Positions 2,881-28,454 of a stretch of 47,462 nucleotides of DNA are shown piece after piece; position 1 is the first letter of the stretch; every line of letters begins with the position of its first letter. The DNA comes from Patescibacteria group bacterium (GTDB taxonomy: Bacteria; Patescibacteriota; Minisyncoccia; UBA6257; HR35), in NCBI GenBank assembly GCA_030549895.1, contig JAUQQM010000004.1:1-47462 (forward strand), given 5' to 3'. Below the pieces are notes generated by a model. That model made no database searches. It had not been told where the DNA came from and worked only from the letters and a program-made list of their open reading frames with translations. The translations under genes were made by a program, and so were the position numbers.

Positions 2881-3501
2881 ATGAGATTAGCTTATTTTAG
2901 AAAATCTAATTTTGATTTTGAAAAAACTTTATATAATTTAAAGGAAGAGTTAAATAAGGAAGGTTTAACTTTGATAGGAGAGTTTAATCTTGATGACTTT
3001 GGTAAAGTTTTAAATGTTTGTAATTCTGAGTGGATAACGAAAATTATTGAAAATGCTAAAGATTTTATTGGCTTACTACCTTGTTTAATTGTAATTTTTA
3101 AGAAAAATGATGATATTTTTGTTGGTATTGGAAATCCAAGTTTAATAGGGGAAATATCTGATAATTCTGAAATTATAGAATTAGCTCAGAAAGTTGATTT
3201 ATCTCTTAAAAAAATAGTAGATAATGCTTGTGGCGTTGGTCCTCTTAAAATTAAAAGTATTAAACTTTATGCAACCACTACTTGTCCTTATTGTAAAATG
3301 GAGGCTGCTTGGTTAGATGAAAATAAAATTAAGTACGAAATTGTTTATGTAGATATTAATCCAATAGCTGCGGAAGAAATGGTAAGAAAGACTGGCCAGA
3401 TGGGCGTACCAGTTACAGAAATTATTTTTGAAAATGGTGATGTCGAATATGTTATTGGGTTTGATAAATATACCCTTCAAAATTATCTTTTTAATAAATA
3501 A
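2881..3501 (+). CDS. DUF302-like domain fused to a glutaredoxin (NrdH/YruB-like) domain
   Basis: N-terminal LNVCN...GLLPC (DUF302-like); C-terminal YATTTCPYC...MVRKTGQMGVPV...IGFD. Confidence 0.75.
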   Translation: MRLAYFRKSNFDFEKTLYNLKEELNKEGLTLIGEFNLDDFGKVLNVCNSEWITKIIENAKDFIGLLPCLIVIFKKNDDIFVGIGNPSLIGEISDNSEIIELAQKVDLSLKKIVDNACGVGPLKIKSIKLYATTTCPYCKMEAAWLDENKIKYEIVYVDINPIAAEEMVRKTGQMGVPVTEIIFENGDVEYVIGFDKYTLQNYLFNK

Positions 3502-15766: not shown

Positions 15767-16006
15767 ATGAAGAAAATTTTTAAAAAATTAAAATACATTA
15801 TTTTCTTACCATATCTTGTTTTTTTAGGATTCATTTTCTATATTCTTTTTATCTGGCAAGAAAAGTCATCAGGAAGTTTTCTAAGTGGTAAAGCTATGGG
15901 ACTTACAGGTATTTTGATGGTTGCTTTTTATTATACCCTTTTTCTTGTGGCAATTTTTATTATTTCTAAAGTTTTAAAATTTATAATCAAAATTATTAAA
16001 AAATAA
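15767..16006 (+). CDS. small two-TM membrane protein
   Basis: 79 aa, two hydrophobic helices, operon-like spacing. Confidence 0.65.
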   Translation: MKKIFKKLKYIIFLPYLVFLGFIFYILFIWQEKSSGSFLSGKAMGLTGILMVAFYYTLFLVAIFIISKVLKFIIKIIKK

Positions 16007-16049
16007 AATCTCTAATTCCACATTCTTAATTCTATATTCTTAAATTTTG

Positions 16050-16066
16050 ATACCCCTATTGGGTAT
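16050..16066. promoter_or_regulatory. putative CsoR operator upstream of the Cu-ATPase
   Basis: Inverted repeat ATACCC-CTATT-GGGTAT; the same TACC-N7-GGTA geometry occurs upstream of csoR. Confidence 0.7.
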
Positions 16067-16094
16067 TTTATTTTTTAGGTATAATTAAATTGAG

Positions 16095-18881
16095 ATGAAA
16101 AAATATATTTGTCCAATGGGGTGTATTGAGCCACAGGAAGAGCCTGGTAATTGTCATGTCTGTGGAATGAAACTTGTTGAAGTTGAGGATGTTTCTAGCG
16201 AAAGTAGTATTCACATCAGTTCGCGAGAAAGTTCGAAGAATTTCACGGCTCAAAACAAACATCACTGTCACCGTGCTGAAGATTTTTTAAATAAATTTTG
16301 GCTTTCTTTAATTTTGACTATACCTATAATTCTTTATTCTGATGTTTTTCAAAAATTTACTGGAATAAAATTGCCATCTTTCGAGGGGATTCAATATTTA
16401 ATTTTAATTCTTGGCTCAATTATTTTTTTCTATGGTGGCTTTGTTTTTCTTGTTGGTGCTTATCGAGAAATTAAGGCTAAAAATTCTGGTATGATGACTT
16501 TGATTGGTTTAGCCATATCTTGTGCATATGTTTATAGTGTTTTTGCTGTTTTATTTAAAATTGGGCGTGAATTTTTCTGGGAACTTACGAGTTTAATTAC
16601 GATTATGCTTTTAGGACATTATTTTGAAATGAGATCAGTTTCTTCGGCTCAAAGAGCACTGCAGGAAATTGAAAAATTATTACCAGATATCGCTGAGAGA
16701 ATTATTATGTCGCGAACAGTTACGAACCACTCGCGAACCTCTGCGAACAAAAATAAAGAAATTTTATATAAAGATCTTAGCTACAAAATTGTTGGTTTAT
16801 TATTCAAGATAAAGAGAGAATTGGGTCTAGGCCATAAAGAAAAAATATATGCTAATGCTTTCGAAATAGAACTTAAAAACAGTGGAATAAATTTTGAAAG
16901 AGAAAAAGAGATACAGTTAATTTACAACGATAATGTAGTTGGAAAATATAAACCAAATTTTATAATTGAAGATAAAGTAATAATAGAATTTAAAGCATTA
17001 CCTTTAGTCACAAAAAGAGATAAAAAACAAATATGGCATTATCTTAGAGGGACTAAATATACATTAGCACTTTTAGTAAATTTTGGTAAAAAAGATGTAG
17101 AGATATATAGGATAGTACATTCTAATAAAGGTACACATCCTTCAAATGATATTTACGTGAGTTCGCAGAATGGTTCGCATATTAGTTCGCAAGATCGTTC
17201 GCAAGAGTTCGCAACTGAAAATAATGTTCGCAATAGTTCGCGAGAAAGTTCGCAAGAGTTCGCGACTGAAATTATAAAACTCGAAGAACTTAAAGTAGGC
17301 GATATAGTTTTAGTAAGACCTGGAGGAAAAATTCCCACTGATGGAGTTGTTATTGAAGGGAAATCAGAAGTTAATGAAAGTATGATTACTGGTGAAAGTA
17401 AGCCAGTTTTGAAAGAAATAGGTTCAGAAGTTATTGCTGGAACAATTAATGGTGATGGAATGTTGAAAATTAAAGTAACAAAAATTGGTGAAGAGACATT
17501 TTTAGCGGGGATCAAAAGATTAATTAAAGAAGCTCAAGCCTCAAAATCAAAACTTCAGGTTTTAGCTGATGTTTTTGCTAAATATTTAACATTTATCGCT
17601 ATTTTTATTGGTCTTTTAAGTTTTACTCTTTGGCTTTTGGTTAAAAAAGATTTTGCTTTTGCTTTAGAAAGATTAGTTACTATTTTGATTATTGCTTGTC
17701 CTCATGCTTTAGGTTTAGCTATTCCTCTTGTTGTTGCTATTTCAACATCTTTAGCAATTCATAATGGATTTTTAATTAGAAATAGACTCCAACTTGAACT
17801 TGCAAGAAAAATAGATATTGTTTTATTTGATAAAACTGGAACCTTAACTTCAGGAAAATTTAAAGTGAAAAAGATATTAACACAAATCAGTTCGCGAGAG
17901 GGTTCGCATATTAGTTCGCGAGAAGGTTCGCAAGAATTAACGATCCTCCAACTTGCAGCTTCTTTAAGTCAATATTCTTCTCATTTTATCTCTCAAGGAA
18001 TTTTAGAAAAAGCAAAAGAAGTTAGTCGCGAACTTTCGCAAATTTTACCGCAAACAGATGCGAACATTAATGGATTGGAGTTTTTAAAAGTTGAAGATTT
18101 TGAAAATTTACCTGGAAGGGGAGTGAAAGGAAGAATTGGGGGTAAGCTTTATTATTTGGGTGGTGATAATTTATTAAAAGAATTAGGTATTGAAAAACCA
18201 CAAATTACAATAAATAATAATGTTCGCAATAGTTCGCAAGAAAGTTCGCAAGATCGTTCGCAGGAGTTCGCGACTGATATTGTCGGAACGATAGTTTATT
18301 TAATTGAAGAGAAAAATATTTTAGGAGCAATTATTTTGGAAGATGAAATTAGAAAAGAATCTTTTGAAGCAGTTAAGGGGCTTCATAAATTAGGTGTTAG
18401 AGTTTTGATGATAACTGGTGATAAAAAAGAGATTGCTGAGAAAGTTTCAAAAGAGCTTGAAATCGATGAATATTTTGCTGAAGTTTTACCAGAAGATAAA
18501 GTAAATAAAGTTAAAGAACTTCAAAAGCGTGGCTTTAAAGTAATGATGGTTGGAGATGGAATTAATGATGCGCCAGCACTTATGCAAGCTGATGTTGGAG
18601 TTGCTATTGGCGCTGGAACAAATGTTGCCATTGAATCAGCAGGAATAATTTTAGTAAAGAATGATCCGAGAGACATTATTAAGATAATTGAACTTTCAAG
18701 AAAAACTTATCAAAAAATGATAGAAAATTTATTTTGGGCAACTGGTTATAATATTGTTGCTCTTCCTCTTGCTGCTGGGATTTTAGCTTTTAAAGGGATT
18801 TTACTTTCTCCAGCCTTAGGTGCAATTTTTATGAGTTTATCTACAATTATTGTTGCCTTAAATGCTTTAAGGTTAAGTTAA
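16095..18881 (+). CDS. copper-translocating P1B-type ATPase (CPH/CopB-like) with in-frame GxxExxY domain and repeat insertions
   Basis: N-terminal YICPM...CHVCGMKL; TGES, IACPHALGLAIP, FDKTGTLT, TGD, GDGINDAP, YN, MSLST; 928 aa, lengthened by insertions. Confidence 0.95.
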   Translation: MKKYICPMGCIEPQEEPGNCHVCGMKLVEVEDVSSESSIHISSRESSKNFTAQNKHHCHRAEDFLNKFWLSLILTIPIILYSDVFQKFTGIKLPSFEGIQYLILILGSIIFFYGGFVFLVGAYREIKAKNSGMMTLIGLAISCAYVYSVFAVLFKIGREFFWELTSLITIMLLGHYFEMRSVSSAQRALQEIEKLLPDIAERIIMSRTVTNHSRTSANKNKEILYKDLSYKIVGLLFKIKRELGLGHKEKIYANAFEIELKNSGINFEREKEIQLIYNDNVVGKYKPNFIIEDKVIIEFKALPLVTKRDKKQIWHYLRGTKYTLALLVNFGKKDVEIYRIVHSNKGTHPSNDIYVSSQNGSHISSQDRSQEFATENNVRNSSRESSQEFATEIIKLEELKVGDIVLVRPGGKIPTDGVVIEGKSEVNESMITGESKPVLKEIGSEVIAGTINGDGMLKIKVTKIGEETFLAGIKRLIKEAQASKSKLQVLADVFAKYLTFIAIFIGLLSFTLWLLVKKDFAFALERLVTILIIACPHALGLAIPLVVAISTSLAIHNGFLIRNRLQLELARKIDIVLFDKTGTLTSGKFKVKKILTQISSREGSHISSREGSQELTILQLAASLSQYSSHFISQGILEKAKEVSRELSQILPQTDANINGLEFLKVEDFENLPGRGVKGRIGGKLYYLGGDNLLKELGIEKPQITINNNVRNSSQESSQDRSQEFATDIVGTIVYLIEEKNILGAIILEDEIRKESFEAVKGLHKLGVRVLMITGDKKEIAEKVSKELEIDEYFAEVLPEDKVNKVKELQKRGFKVMMVGDGINDAPALMQADVGVAIGAGTNVAIESAGIILVKNDPRDIIKIIELSRKTYQKMIENLFWATGYNIVALPLAAGILAFKGILLSPALGAIFMSLSTIIVALNALRLS
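16212..16247 (+). repeat. GTTCGC micro-repeat array, in frame (HISSRESSKNFT)
   Basis: cacatcaGTTCGCgagaaaGTTCGaagaatttcacg. Confidence 0.7.
16707..17267 (+). mobile_element. about 561-bp in-frame insertion: GxxExxY nuclease-like domain (~16761-17120) flanked by inverted GCGAAC/GTTCGC arrays
   Basis: LSYKIVG...ELGLGHKEKIY...VIIEFKA...QIWHYL...LLVNFG; terminal IR GTCGCGAAC (16709) / GTTCGCGAC (17258); nine GTTCGC copies in 17155-17267; interrupts PDIAERII / EIIKLEELKVGD. Confidence 0.8.
17886..17940 (+). repeat. GTTCGC array (4 copies), in frame (ISSREGSHISSREGSQEL)
   Basis: Read directly from the sequence. Confidence 0.9.
18024..18069 (-). repeat. reverse-orientation (GCGAAC) array, in frame (SRELSQILPQTDANI)
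   Basis: AGTCGCGAACT...TGCGAACATTA; both ends are perfect 11-bp reverse complements of the ends of 18218-18275. Confidence 0.85.
18218..18275 (+). repeat. GTTCGC array (5 copies), in frame (NVRNSSQESSQDRSQEFAT)
   Basis: Near copy of 17222-17267 with one extra unit. Confidence 0.9.
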
Positions 18882-19074
18882 GATGTAGCAAAATTTTTCT
18901 ATTACTTGGAAAGAATAATTAAGAAATTTGCTAATCACTAAAAATAGGATTTATAGCTTATTACTGACTTTCATTTTATATTATTTTTGAAACAGCAGGT
19001 AAAAAGGAAATTAAATGATTTTTGTGGTGTCAACCAATAAAGTTATTTAAATCGTGTTATAATTTTATACGATT

Positions 19075-26334: not shown

Positions 26335-26882
26335 AAAAGCTTTTAATTATTATTTTATTATTTTTTGCCGTTGTTTCTTTTGCTTTTGCTCACAGTGAAG
26401 ATGCTGAATTGAATGCTGAAATTCAAAAAGGAAGGGAACTCTTTGAAAAATTACAGCAAGGAAAAATTACCTGTCAAGATTTAACTAATGAAGATTTTCA
26501 TTCAATTGGTGAATATGCTATGGAACTTATGGTTGGTGGAAGTGATCATCTTTTAATGAATCAGATGATGGAAAGAATGCATGGTAAAGAAGCTGAAGAA
26601 CAGATGCATATAAATATGGGGAAAAGATTTAGTGGTTGTGAAACTGGTTATAATAAGTCGAATTGGATGATGGGACCAATGATGAATATGCCGATGATGG
26701 GTTATTGGGGATGGTGGAATTTTTCTAATTGGAAAGGTTGGAGTATTTTTGCTCCTATTTTTGCGATTGTTGGTGTTTTTTGGATGTTAATTGTTTTAAT
26801 TTTCCCAATACTTATTTTAGTTTTATTCATTTTGGGAATAATTTATTTAATCAAAAGATTAAAAGAAGGAATTAATAAATAA
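26331..26882 (+). CDS. exported/membrane Met- and His-rich protein
   Basis: Signal peptide ending AFA-H, HLLMNQMMERMHG...QMHINMG, MMGPMMNMPMMG, C-terminal TM. Confidence 0.75.
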   Translation: MKKLLIIILLFFAVVSFAFAHSEDAELNAEIQKGRELFEKLQQGKITCQDLTNEDFHSIGEYAMELMVGGSDHLLMNQMMERMHGKEAEEQMHINMGKRFSGCETGYNKSNWMMGPMMNMPMMGYWGWWNFSNWKGWSIFAPIFAIVGVFWMLIVLIFPILILVLFILGIIYLIKRLKEGINK

Positions 26883-26883
26883 A

Positions 26884-27972
26884 ATGGTAAAGAAAATTCA
26901 AAAGGAAAATAAAAATTATTATCAATGTGAAATTTGTGGCTATTATTATGAAAGTGAAGGATTAGCAAAAGAGTGTGAAAAGTGGTGTCAAGAGTGCAAA
27001 AGCTGTAATTTAGAGATTATAAAACAAAGCATTGGTAGGGAAGAGATTGAAAAACGAAAAGTATTTAATTTTGGTTCGTTGGTTTTGGGGGTTTTGCTTG
27101 GTGGTCTAATTGGTAGTTCAGCAGTTTTTTTGATGAATTATAAATTAGAAAGCAATAAGCAAACTTCGCTTTCTTTTGTTCAGCAAGTGGTGGCGAATGT
27201 TTTACCAAGAGAGGGATTTAAAACAAAATTAGTTTTGGGTGATGCTGTTAAAAAAATGGTTGATTGTGGGGTAATTGATTTAGAAAAAATGAAGAAAATT
27301 TATAATGGGCAAATTCCTGAATATTTTCAAAAATTAATTAATGGTTATTATGAGCCTTTAGTTATTGATCAAGAAACAGCTAATTACCTTTTAAATATTT
27401 TTTGGCCTTTGGGACTTTCAAACAAAACTGAATTTAATAAAAATATTCCTTTTACTGAGAAAGATTTACCTTATTTAGCTTCAACTGGTGGTTGGTGGTT
27501 AGGTAAGAAAGATAATGGAGCTGAATATTTTAATAAATGTGAAATTATAAAATTAACTCCTAAGCAAGAGGAAATTGTTTATGAAGTAGCTCAAAATACT
27601 TTTAGGCCTTGTTGTGATAATTCAACTTTTGCTCAAGATTGTAATCATGGTTCAGCTTTACTTGGAGCTTTAGAACTTGCAGCCAGTCAAGGATATTCAA
27701 AAGATGAACTTTATAAATTGGCTCTTCAGTTAAATTCTTTTTGGTTTCCTCAAAATTATGTTAAGATTGCTTTATATAAAAAGTTAGTTGAAAATACCGA
27801 CTGGCCAATTCATGCTGGTTCGCGAGAAAGTTCGCAAGAGTTAGCATTAATAAAAGAAATTATGTCAGTTAAATATTCTTCAATTTCGGGTTATCTTCAA
27901 AACGTCGAACAAAAATTAGCAAAATTAAATCTGCCAGAATTTCAGTCATCTGGCGGAAGTTGTGGATTATAA
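26884..27972 (+). CDS. uncharacterised Cys-rich membrane-anchored protein
   Basis: N-terminal CEICG...C..C..C..C, one TM, RPCC...DCNHG, C-terminal GGSCGL; carries an in-frame GTTCGC array. Confidence 0.75.
   Translation: MVKKIQKENKNYYQCEICGYYYESEGLAKECEKWCQECKSCNLEIIKQSIGREEIEKRKVFNFGSLVLGVLLGGLIGSSAVFLMNYKLESNKQTSLSFVQQVVANVLPREGFKTKLVLGDAVKKMVDCGVIDLEKMKKIYNGQIPEYFQKLINGYYEPLVIDQETANYLLNIFWPLGLSNKTEFNKNIPFTEKDLPYLASTGGWWLGKKDNGAEYFNKCEIIKLTPKQEEIVYEVAQNTFRPCCDNSTFAQDCNHGSALLGALELAASQGYSKDELYKLALQLNSFWFPQNYVKIALYKKLVENTDWPIHAGSRESSQELALIKEIMSVKYSSISGYLQNVEQKLAKLNLPEFQSSGGSCGL
27817..27846 (+). repeat. GTTCGC array, in frame (GSRESSQELA)
   Basis: gGTTCGCgagaaaGTTCGCaagagttagca; 24 nt identical to part of the 17237-17267 array. 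Confidence 0.85.
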
Positions 27973-27974
27973 AA

Positions 27975-28454
27975 ATGAAAAACAAAAGTATAATTTTAGG
28001 GTTAATAATAGGTTTTCTTTTAGTAGGGTCATTTGTTGTTTTAGTAAAAAATCAATCTTCAAAACAAACTAAATTTTCTGGTATGCTAGTAACTCTTTAT
28101 AAATCACCGACTTGTGATTGTTGTGCCCAATACGCAAATTATTTAAAAGCAAATGGCTTTAAAATTGAAGTTAGAAAAGTTTCTGATCAAGAACTTGAAA
28201 ATATTAAGAGGCAAAATAATATTCCTTATAATTTATGGTCTTGTCATACAGTTTTTTTAAATAATTATTTTGTTGAAGGTCATGTTCCAGTTGAGGCAAT
28301 TGAAAAACTTTTAACTGAAAAACCAGAAATTAATGGTATTGCTCTTCCAGGAATGCCTTCTGGCTCCCCTGGGATGCCAGGAATTAAATTTTATCCATTT
28401 AAAATTCATTCAGTCAAAGACGGTAAATATTTAGGAATTTTTATTCAAATCTAA
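27975..28454 (+). CDS. DUF411 (CopG-like) metal-binding protein
   Basis: YKSPTCDCC, SCHT, VEGHVP, ALPGMPSGSPGM. Confidence 0.9.
   Translation: MKNKSIILGLIIGFLLVGSFVVLVKNQSSKQTKFSGMLVTLYKSPTCDCCAQYANYLKANGFKIEVRKVSDQELENIKRQNNIPYNLWSCHTVFLNNYFVEGHVPVEAIEKLLTEKPEINGIALPGMPSGSPGMPGIKFYPFKIHSVKDGKYLGIFIQI

Follow-up and report, generated by a model that had tools for sequence, protein, structure and literature searches.

In-frame hexamer arrays in a copper ATPase gene of a hot-spring patescibacterium as probable derivatives of an array-armed GxxExxY nuclease element

How do arrays of one short DNA motif come to lie at several separate places in a single conserved gene, in frame every time? We consider this question for a stretch of 47,462 nucleotides (nt) from a Patescibacteria group bacterium (positions 1 to 47,462 of contig JAUQQM010000004.1, assembly GCA_030549895.1), here called the window, in which a gene for a copper-translocating ATPase carries a nuclease domain between two arrays of the hexamer GTTCGC and four further arrays that have no nuclease. 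The window is contig C4 of an assembly of 8 contigs and 470,788 nt, with about 28% G+C and 88% completeness, referred to below as G000; other G numbers denote relatives in the same family, L numbers loci, and P numbers proteins. Each of the four arrays is a copy of a short DNA repeat specific to this lineage. The explanation that we favor, and hold to be probable, is that they are non-autonomous or relic derivatives of an “iteron-armed” GxxExxY nuclease element, comparable to Rickettsia palindromic elements (RPEs) or to REPINs, the hairpin-forming doublets of repetitive extragenic palindromic (REP) sequences, and that they have been filtered for a hydrophilic, stop-free reading.

Results

Four Nuclease-Free Arrays in One Reading Frame

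G+C content in the window lies between 24 and 31%, and GTTCGC occurs 29 times where 2.9 copies are expected (SD 1.8, maximum 8; 0 of 100 dinucleotide shuffles reach 29). The open reading frame (ORF) of the ATPase, which contains the Pfam domains HMBD, E1-E2_ATPase, and Hydrolase (HAD), holds 24 of these 29 copies. A first-pass annotation had described four nuclease-free, CpG-rich arrays in this gene, and all four are present. The features are as follows, with array E values from an nhmmer profile built from 16 canonical units and periods from Tandem Repeats Finder (TRF):

16095..18881, forward strand: host gene, P1B-type copper-translocating ATPase, 928 amino acids (aa) in a single stop-free frame (TIGR01511, E 1.3e-164)
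16210..16250, forward strand: A1, a decayed unit in the linker 3' of the metal-binding domain, aa 39-52 (nhmmer E 1.5e-5)
16704..16752, reverse strand: left arm of the nuclease element, a single canonical unit, reversed (nhmmer E 8e-7)
16776..17117, forward strand: GxxExxY / PDDEXK_3 nuclease domain, in frame, aa 226-339 (PF13366, E 8e-30; TIGR04256, E 1e-31)
17153..17270, forward strand: right arm of the nuclease element, made up of two forward units (R1 and R2) with nine hexamers (nhmmer E 2e-9 and 2.7e-17)
17886..17937, forward strand: A4, array after DKTGT, aa 598-615, four exact hexamers at 12-nt spacing (TRF period 12)
18022..18069, reverse strand: A5, a single unit of 48 nt in a loop of the N domain, aa 643-659 (nhmmer E 9e-7)
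~18202..18282, forward strand: A6, an A/T leader and a five-hexamer unit in an N-domain loop, aa ~703-730 (TRF period 12)
27816..27845, forward strand: in-frame remnant with two exact hexamers and the peptide GSRESSQELA (nhmmer E 2.4e-7), in the 369-aa ORF 26863-27969

The profile recovers all four solo arrays (E 1.5e-5 to 7e-11), which differ in how well their hexamers are preserved: one exact and two decayed copies in A1 (GTTCGA, TTTCAC), two exact and two variant copies in A5, and five exact copies in A6 at spacings of 10/12/12/10. TRF periods in the right arm of the nuclease element are 22 and 51. As the first-pass annotation had claimed, the arrays never break the frame, the 928-aa ORF being stop-free throughout; the predicted reading of the forward arrays is SSRESSQEFA-like peptides, and none of the arrays overlaps the catalytic motifs TGES (aa 432-435), CPH (535-537), DKTGT (579-583), or GDGIND (820-825), whose positions we took from invariant alignment columns.

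The Array Unit Is the Arm of the Nuclease Element

Copies from G000 and its relatives define a canonical unit of about 47-48 nt, (A)TAAT-GTTCGCA-n3-GTTCGCG-n5-GTTCGCA-n3-GTTCGCG-ACT(A/G)A, with four hexamers GTTCGC(A/G) spaced 10/12/10, which is one-helical-turn phasing; the true period is a 22-nt dimer (10 + 12). Conservation at the unit ends extends past the hexamers, and in metagenome contigs the segment homologous to other contexts runs from 17221 to 17264-17267, the boundaries of the canonical unit. A5 is precisely one such unit of 48 nt. Both arms of the nuclease element are inverted copies of the same unit, and the unit of the arrays is identical to these arms.

A census of G000 with nhmmer yielded 19 significant unit matches (E ≤0.0032) and 7 noise matches (E ≥1.1). 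Nine of the significant matches lie in the ATPase gene, one in ORF 26863-27969, and nine between genes on contig C6, at the three nhmmer loci 454-606, 1898-2110, and 3051-3112. The arrays are thus not restricted to the ATPase locus, the situation that the first-pass annotation would have explained by local slippage: they recur at 27816-27845, at the three intergenic loci on C6, and in 10 of 24 sister genomes, where they occupy at least 14 real genes. We rejected a simple tandem repeat that arose by slippage only, on the grounds of ten loci in G000, dispersal in 10 of 24 sister genomes, and conserved unit ends.

The array region of contig C6 holds toxin-antitoxin-like ORFs and the ends of LamG-like genes, and 58-nt units stand in tandem on this contig. 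Within C6:1-2110 there are two LamG-like gene 3' ends, one the end of a full gene (1-447) and the other a stand-alone fragment of ~35 codons (~1790-1895), each followed directly by reverse tandem GTTCGC units and with the toxin-antitoxin-like ORFs between them; the region may be duplicated or cassette-like, its junctions formed by the arrays. ORF 26863-27969, which carries the remnant in the window, has a sub-threshold match only in Pfam. It is Cys-rich and lies beside a small ORF with a CDCC motif, ~9 kb 3' of the copper ATPase, and 26863-28451 may be a metal-handling neighborhood.

Arrays Are Insertions That Differ between Strains

The ATPase orthologue of G013 is 94.2% identical to that of G000 in nucleotides outside the arrays and has no nuclease element. 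Relative to it, A5 is a clean 48-nt insertion between GAAG and ATGG, and at A6 a replacement adds 69 nt net, G013 having TTTTATCTGAAA in place of A6. The other two arrays are shared: A1 is intact in G013 (three hexamers) and decayed in G000, and A4 is decayed in G013 (1 of 4 hexamers) and intact in G000. Between the two genomes, A1 and A4 differ at 17 of 93 nt vs. 110 of 1881 elsewhere in the gene (odds ratio 3.6, p 5e-5), and 9 of 31 codons in the shared arrays change the residue vs. 32 of 627 elsewhere. By this comparison, divergence in the shared arrays is about threefold that of the remaining gene and consists mostly of amino-acid changes. The changed codons rule out protein-level conservation of the array peptides; the first-pass annotation had set such conservation among orthologues against its own proposal, and the orthologues do not show it.

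Among 13 further orthologues that we aligned, A5 occurs in none, and the A6 site carries an array in two, decayed in G022 and a reverse-plus-forward composite in G018; the array at the A4 site of G010 is also a composite. Eight genomes have both arrays and the ATPase, and in seven of them an exact triple match lies in or beside the ATPase gene. The ATPase gene serves generally as a landing pad for arrays of several types.

We also observed other repeats at these positions. At the A6 site of G022 (L026), a reverse array of another motif (INADMTQINAD) is followed by the decayed GTTCGC forward array (VRKSSRK...YEFVTD). Proteins P0020, P0025, P0028, P0007, and P0050 have other repeat peptides (TDQFG/NPYKSV, RINTD/TQINAD/NPRESA) at the same ATPase loops, and in P0050 a GxxExxY domain occupies the post-DKTGT site, between RNNAE / IRVNPR-type peptides.

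Variation in unit number among strains, which the first-pass annotation had proposed as a check, is present in the contigs of four hot-spring runs (among 20 runs from 9 studies). Joints that skip exactly 18022-18069, i.e., A5, occur in 4/4 runs, and an empty A6 allele in 2/4; A4 is 36 nt shorter in three runs, with a 6-nt microhomology, and A6 is 12 nt longer in one. In three runs (X2, X3, and X6), joints from 16739/16740 to 17244 connect the two arms without the nuclease. The arrays are therefore insertions relative to close orthologues, polymorphic in presence and in unit number between strains, and nuclease-deleted, arms-only forms of the element occur at the same site in related strains.

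The last of these forms raises the possibility that every solo array is a former full element or arms-only composite that lost its nuclease and one arm, and that none ever moved alone. We regard this as unlikely. It would account for the nuclease-deleted joints, for the A6 site, a reverse-plus-forward composite in G018 of which G000 has the forward half only, and for the decayed hexamers in A1 and A5, and REP singlets are described as remnants of REPINs (PMC3337134). Four former nuclease insertions would, however, be needed in one gene of 2.8 kb, and A5 corresponds exactly to a single canonical unit that keeps both conserved ends and for which an orthologue of 94% identity has a clean empty site. 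Variants private to A4, A6, and the present right arm also speak against it. In a search of the 470-kb genome and 129 loci, one 18-mer is common only to R1 and A4, a second 18-mer only to R1 and A6, and a 22-mer only to R2 and A6. Because they share these variants with the right arm as it now stands, A4 and A6 appear to have been copied from it, rather than to descend from independent old elements; as judged from these words, they are in part local copies of the resident element's right arm.

GxxExxY Nucleases with Inverted Arms in the Family and the Phylum

Across the family we found 15 matches to TIGR04256, in 11 of 25 genomes, and 11 of the 15 lie in frame inside long host ORFs. These hosts are a glycosyltransferase, an NADH-dehydrogenase-like protein, the ATPase (two genera), transketolase (one site, four genera), RtcB (one site, two genera), and one unidentified ORF. 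Inverted hexamer arms, reverse then forward, stand on both flanks of 13 of the 15 matches; L056, which is broken by stops, and L053, which is without arms, are the exceptions. The arm hexamers in the family are GTTCGC, GTCTGC, ATCCGC/T, GTCCGT, ATCCGG, ATTCGT, and TTTCGT. In the nuclease tree, pairs or trios with the same motif receive 99-100% support, and the transketolase nuclease of G020 (GTTCGC) clusters with those of the ATPase and apart from the three ATCCGY nucleases that share its transketolase site; hexamer type tracks nuclease phylogeny.

The arm hexamers of the same-site inserts in transketolase (L046, L047, L051, and L054) and RtcB (L049 and L050) vary between GTTCGC, ATCCGT, and ATCCGC. 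Such inserts resemble the outcome of homing to a fixed site by element lineages that can replace one another.

The abundance of arrays agrees only in part with a nuclease partner. The GTTCGC pattern is counted 17, 29, and 23 times in three genomes with the cognate nuclease vs. 1-7 times in seven others, GTCCGT arrays peak in G006, which has the cognate nuclease, and ATCCGC arrays peak in G011, which has a nuclease of the ATCCGT type. Extra cognate arrays within ~1.5 kb are clear at 6 of 11 nuclease loci, and G018 has them on the adjoining contig. Strict pairing of one nuclease with one array was rejected: it fails for GTCTGC, and for ATCCGC, where G006 has the nuclease and no regular triple match.

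Elsewhere in the phylum, GxxExxY genes occur in 38 of 300 sampled genomes and are nearly always free-standing, only 4 of 80 matches lying in frames of at least 200 aa. By k-mer count, inverted motif arrays stand beside the gene at no fewer than 14 of 29 such loci. At these loci in other Patescibacteria (L101-L129), we saw free-standing GxxExxY genes bracketed by two to five inverted, lineage-specific motifs of 7-10 nt, including ATCAGCG, ATTCGTA, TTCCGTA, ATCTGCG, TTTTGCG, and AATCAAG, and near-perfect 45-nt inverted repeats at L121.

The 115-aa nuclease is predicted by AlphaFold2, with a predicted local distance difference test score (pLDDT) of 95, to be a minimal PD-(D/E)XK fold. A fold search returned generic PD-(D/E)XK proteins, the best match being Cas4 SSO0001 (TMq 0.57, E 2e-3) and none reaching E ≤0.001; folds like that of lambda exonuclease are also near the model, with weak E values. 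Comparison with the Protein Data Bank by sequence gave no true homologue, the matches to carboxypeptidase G2 (E 0.006) and glyceraldehyde-3-phosphate dehydrogenase being chance. The PDDEXK_3 family has its function listed as “Unknown” in the relevant part of PMC3424549.

The first-pass annotation had proposed a partner nuclease different from the enzymes of known repeat systems. The in-frame GxxExxY genes that we examined all carry inverted arms of their own hexamer, which, with the agreement of motif and clade, upholds this as a candidate partnership; the evidence is a correlation, the role of the enzyme in mobilization is putative, and the copy in G000 is without the conserved Asp. The same agreement speaks against a nuclease-independent origin, in which the arrays would behave as minisatellites, changing by slippage and recombination and spreading by template switching or microhomology repair and by gene conversion, with the nuclease a passenger between arrays. 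The variants of -36 nt (with its 6-nt microhomology) and +12 nt, the tandem 58-nt units on C6, the presence of arrays in genomes in which no cognate nuclease was found, and the strong local clustering are all as such a process would leave them. Yet hexamer type co-varies with nuclease clade over at least 13 elements, including one shared insertion site, the arms always have reverse-then-forward geometry around the nuclease, free-standing genes in the wider phylum included, and conservation of the unit ends goes past the hexamers, which together make this origin distinctly improbable in our judgment.

Arrays in Other Genes and Their Place in Proteins

A three-hexamer pattern is found in 10 of 24 sister genomes of the family and in none of 36 genomes from other families in the order; a reversed-pattern control gave 0 everywhere. 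In a collection of 185,579 species, the canonical four-hexamer unit occurs in 24 stretches, most of them titled Paceibacter, Pacebacteria, or Parcubacteria and a few otherwise. Open frames of at least 200 aa contain 25 of 35 array clusters in G018, G020, and G010, and all 14 host ORFs tested in these three genomes are genuine Pfam families:

Array hosts, first group: PGA_cap; Pyruvate phosphate dikinase; TruB-acylphosphatase; Enolase (two); Mur ligases (two); ROK kinase
Array hosts, second group: TGT; Ribonucleotide reductase; a second P-type ATPase; NUDIX; PCMT; Ribulose-phosphate epimerase

By the division into coding and intergenic copies that the first-pass annotation had suggested, most clusters in the relatives are intragenic (25 of 35), and 9 of 19 matches in G000 are intergenic, on C6. 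Same-orientation arrays in long ORFs use the most hydrophilic stop-free frame in 31 of 36 cases, reading SSRESSQEFA when forward and PRTDAN when reverse; the frames differ for copies whose ORF is short or lacking. Arms-only composites occur in G018, G020, and G010. At one locus of G020 (L072, on G020:C21), we noted a 1067-aa ribonucleotide reductase ORF with a LAGLIDADG intein and forward and reverse GTTCGC arrays in one frame.

The first-pass annotation had expected the insertions to map to loops. In an AlphaFold2 model of the ATPase (96 sequences, mean pLDDT 76, predicted template modeling score 0.71), all four fall in low-pLDDT coil. The A1 region (aa 37-57) and the A6 region (aa 711-727) have pLDDT <50, A4 is coil (54 in block 601-610), and A5 covers a helix end and the next coil (61 in block 651-660), while the flanking blocks are mostly at 80-96, the lowest, 68, lying just before A6. 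The arrays are thus predicted to sit in disordered or coil segments.

Position between domains, a spacing of 10-12 nt, and a hydrophilic reading in 31 of 36 cases are what host selection could produce, if the arrays were useful flexible linkers or iteron-like sites for a host DNA-binding protein with one motif per helical turn. The rapid, mostly nonsynonymous divergence of the arrays, three times that of the gene, their presence and absence between near-identical alleles, the different repeat types at the same loops in orthologues, and the decay of hexamers in one lineage or the other all run counter to this, and we consider it very improbable.

At the nucleic acid level, the two arms of the nuclease element cofold at -66.6 kcal/mol vs. 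-42.7 ± 3.5 kcal/mol (z -6.9), and strong hairpins form in 7/7 reverse-plus-forward composites tested, with z from -3.4 to -10.6 for arms and composites. Such folding, and the presence in the family of RtcB, itself an element host, would suit an RNA-level intervening sequence whose arms pair in mRNA and which is cut out and religated (e.g., by RtcB) before the peptides are made, but the reading frame continues on either side of 11/11 nuclease inserts and of every array in a real gene, needlessly if they were spliced, solo arrays have no structure, and Rfam gives no match, so that we give this idea almost no credence. The Rfam search covered 15900-19000 and found nothing at E up to 1.

A Mechanism and the Points against It

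The favored explanation, that the arrays are derivatives of the armed nuclease element, can be put as a sequence of steps. The GxxExxY nuclease would recognize the array made of its own hexamer, as the co-variation of hexamer type and nuclease clade suggests. Breaks or recombination provoked by the nuclease would be repaired by copying arm units from nearby donors, so that nuclease-free units would be seeded mostly in cis, and slippage and internal deletion would afterward alter the number of units. In a genome of ~0.5 Mb with little spacer DNA, the survivors would be those of a length that is a multiple of three, free of stops, in a hydrophilic frame (SSRESSQEFA or PRTDAN), and in surface loops. 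The proposal of the first-pass annotation, non-autonomous derivatives that spread into tolerant loops, is supported by insertions that lie in coil and are dispersed; a part of the data fits relics and local copying better than free transposition.

Several points weigh against the favored explanation. Nuclease-driven transposition, binding, and cleavage are steps that we infer from sequence comparison. The nuclease in G000 has Asn at the catalytic Asp (16959-16961, aa 289), reading KPNF where homologues read PDF, VDF, and similar, and Asp is present in 37 of 38 homologues; this copy is probably catalytically dead, which makes current mobilization in G000 doubtful and suggests that its arrays are now mainly decaying relics. 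GTCTGC arrays are commonest in G018, G023, and G019, in which the cognate nuclease was not found, and so arrays can either survive or spread with no partner, or else the nuclease is missing from the assemblies; G010, a single contig of 98% completeness, has GTTCGC arrays and no GxxExxY match. The ATPase gene, 0.6% of the assembly, holds 6 of 10 array loci in G000 (binomial p ~9e-12 under uniform placement), and local gene conversion or slippage alone could explain this concentration. No target-site duplication was seen at the A5 and A6 junctions in the comparison with G013, and the solo arrays are without fold signal (z +0.77, -1.24, -0.40, and +0.86 for A1, A4, A5, and A6; 200 shuffles each). 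The metagenome contigs mix related strains and species, and they give alleles, not events; depth was not used for allele frequency.

Comparison with Known Repeat Systems

The first-pass annotation had likened the arrays to RPEs and to REP sequences with their associated tyrosine transposases (RAYTs); the likeness holds for lifestyle and not for structure, since solo arrays are not palindromic. As characterized in the relevant passages of PMC10969869, RPEs are selfish repeats in frame in unrelated housekeeping genes of a reduced genome, whose extra peptide is compatible with the fold. The array hosts here are similar, including the ATPase, enolase, pyruvate phosphate dikinase, Mur ligases, TGT, and ribonucleotide reductase, with translation predicted from the open frames. 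Unlike an RPE, a hairpin of ~100-150 bp, the array unit is ~48 nt of direct hexamer repeats, which sets the two apart by description; a palindromic hairpin is formed by reverse-plus-forward composites only and not by solo arrays, a candidate partner gene lies physically between copies of the repeat, and the host phylum is Patescibacteria.

REPIN-RAYT systems resemble ours in organization. As described in PMC3337134, PMC3116915, and 10.1101/2022.05.22.493013, inverted copies of a scattered repeat stand on either side of a single-copy enzyme gene, and the repeats are lineage-specific. Here, too, a partner gene is flanked by inverted copies of a dispersed repeat (13 of 15 matches in the family and 14 of 29 elsewhere in the phylum), inverted doublets form hairpins and singlets resemble remnants, and each enzyme lineage has its own repeat. 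The partner, however, is a PD-(D/E)XK nuclease and not an IS200/IS605-like HUH Y1 tyrosine transposase, the repeat is a hexamer array and not an imperfect palindrome, and most copies are intragenic (and predicted to be translated) where theirs are extragenic. The closest known systems are RPEs in lifestyle and REPIN-RAYT in organization, and the arrays lack defining features of both.

Other mobile elements share single traits with the arrays. Like MITEs (miniature transposable elements with inverted repeats), they include arms-only composites and a nuclease-deleted allele with joined arms at the site of a full element, i.e., an internal deletion that keeps both ends; A1, A4, A5, and A6 themselves are single-arm forms, not composites. 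There is no DDE or other recognized transposase, as the parent encodes only the 115-aa nuclease, A5 has no target-site duplication (GAAG and ATGG border the unit), and the arms are iterated motifs, not a single terminal inverted repeat. A nuclease ORF in frame at a fixed site of a conserved gene, with transketolase and RtcB sites reused across genera, recalls inteins and homing endonucleases; unlike an intein, the insert is presumably retained in the protein. We rejected an intein in the ATPase, as a Pfam scan (E up to 0.01) detects no Hint/intein family there, the same scan detecting Intein_splicing in the ribonucleotide reductase of G020.

Iterons and the subterminal arrays at transposon ends (Tn7, Mu, and CACTA) have short direct protein-binding motifs in each end, inverted between ends and helically phased. 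The arms of the nuclease element match this in having several direct motif copies each, inverted between arms, with helical phasing; they differ in that there is no transposase, that arrays also occur solo and in frame, and that binding is putative. To our knowledge, in-frame selfish repeats are textbook only for Rickettsia, and we know of no partner enzyme for them. A literature search, which did not cover subscription journals or supplementary files, found no prior description of the arrays or of an armed GxxExxY element.

Discussion

A wider proposal, which we put forward tentatively and with less confidence than the derivation of the arrays itself, is that GxxExxY nucleases and their inverted, helically phased hexamer arrays form an undescribed class of compact mobile elements in Patescibacteria with lineage-specific motif recognition. 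In the hot-spring family, these elements would have moved into coding DNA, in frame in essential genes (the proposed essential hosts of whole elements being the ATPase, transketolase, RtcB, the NADH-dehydrogenase-like protein, and the glycosyltransferase), with the arms serving as hydrophilic linkers. Seeding in cis would place 48-nt units in nearby loops, and the four arrays of the copper ATPase would be that process in one gene.

The lifestyle of the in-frame selfish repeat now extends to the candidate phyla radiation, together with a physically linked candidate partner from a nuclease family of unknown function, and the co-variation of motif and enzyme makes the partnership directly testable in vitro. 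The arrays also explain odd low-complexity peptides (SSRESSQEFA, PRTDAN, NPRESA, and TDQFG) that inflate or fragment protein alignments of these metagenome-assembled genomes, and they are markers of strain-level variation. More broadly, they show, in a bacterial case from a hot-spring host, how very small genomes accommodate junk DNA in proteins.

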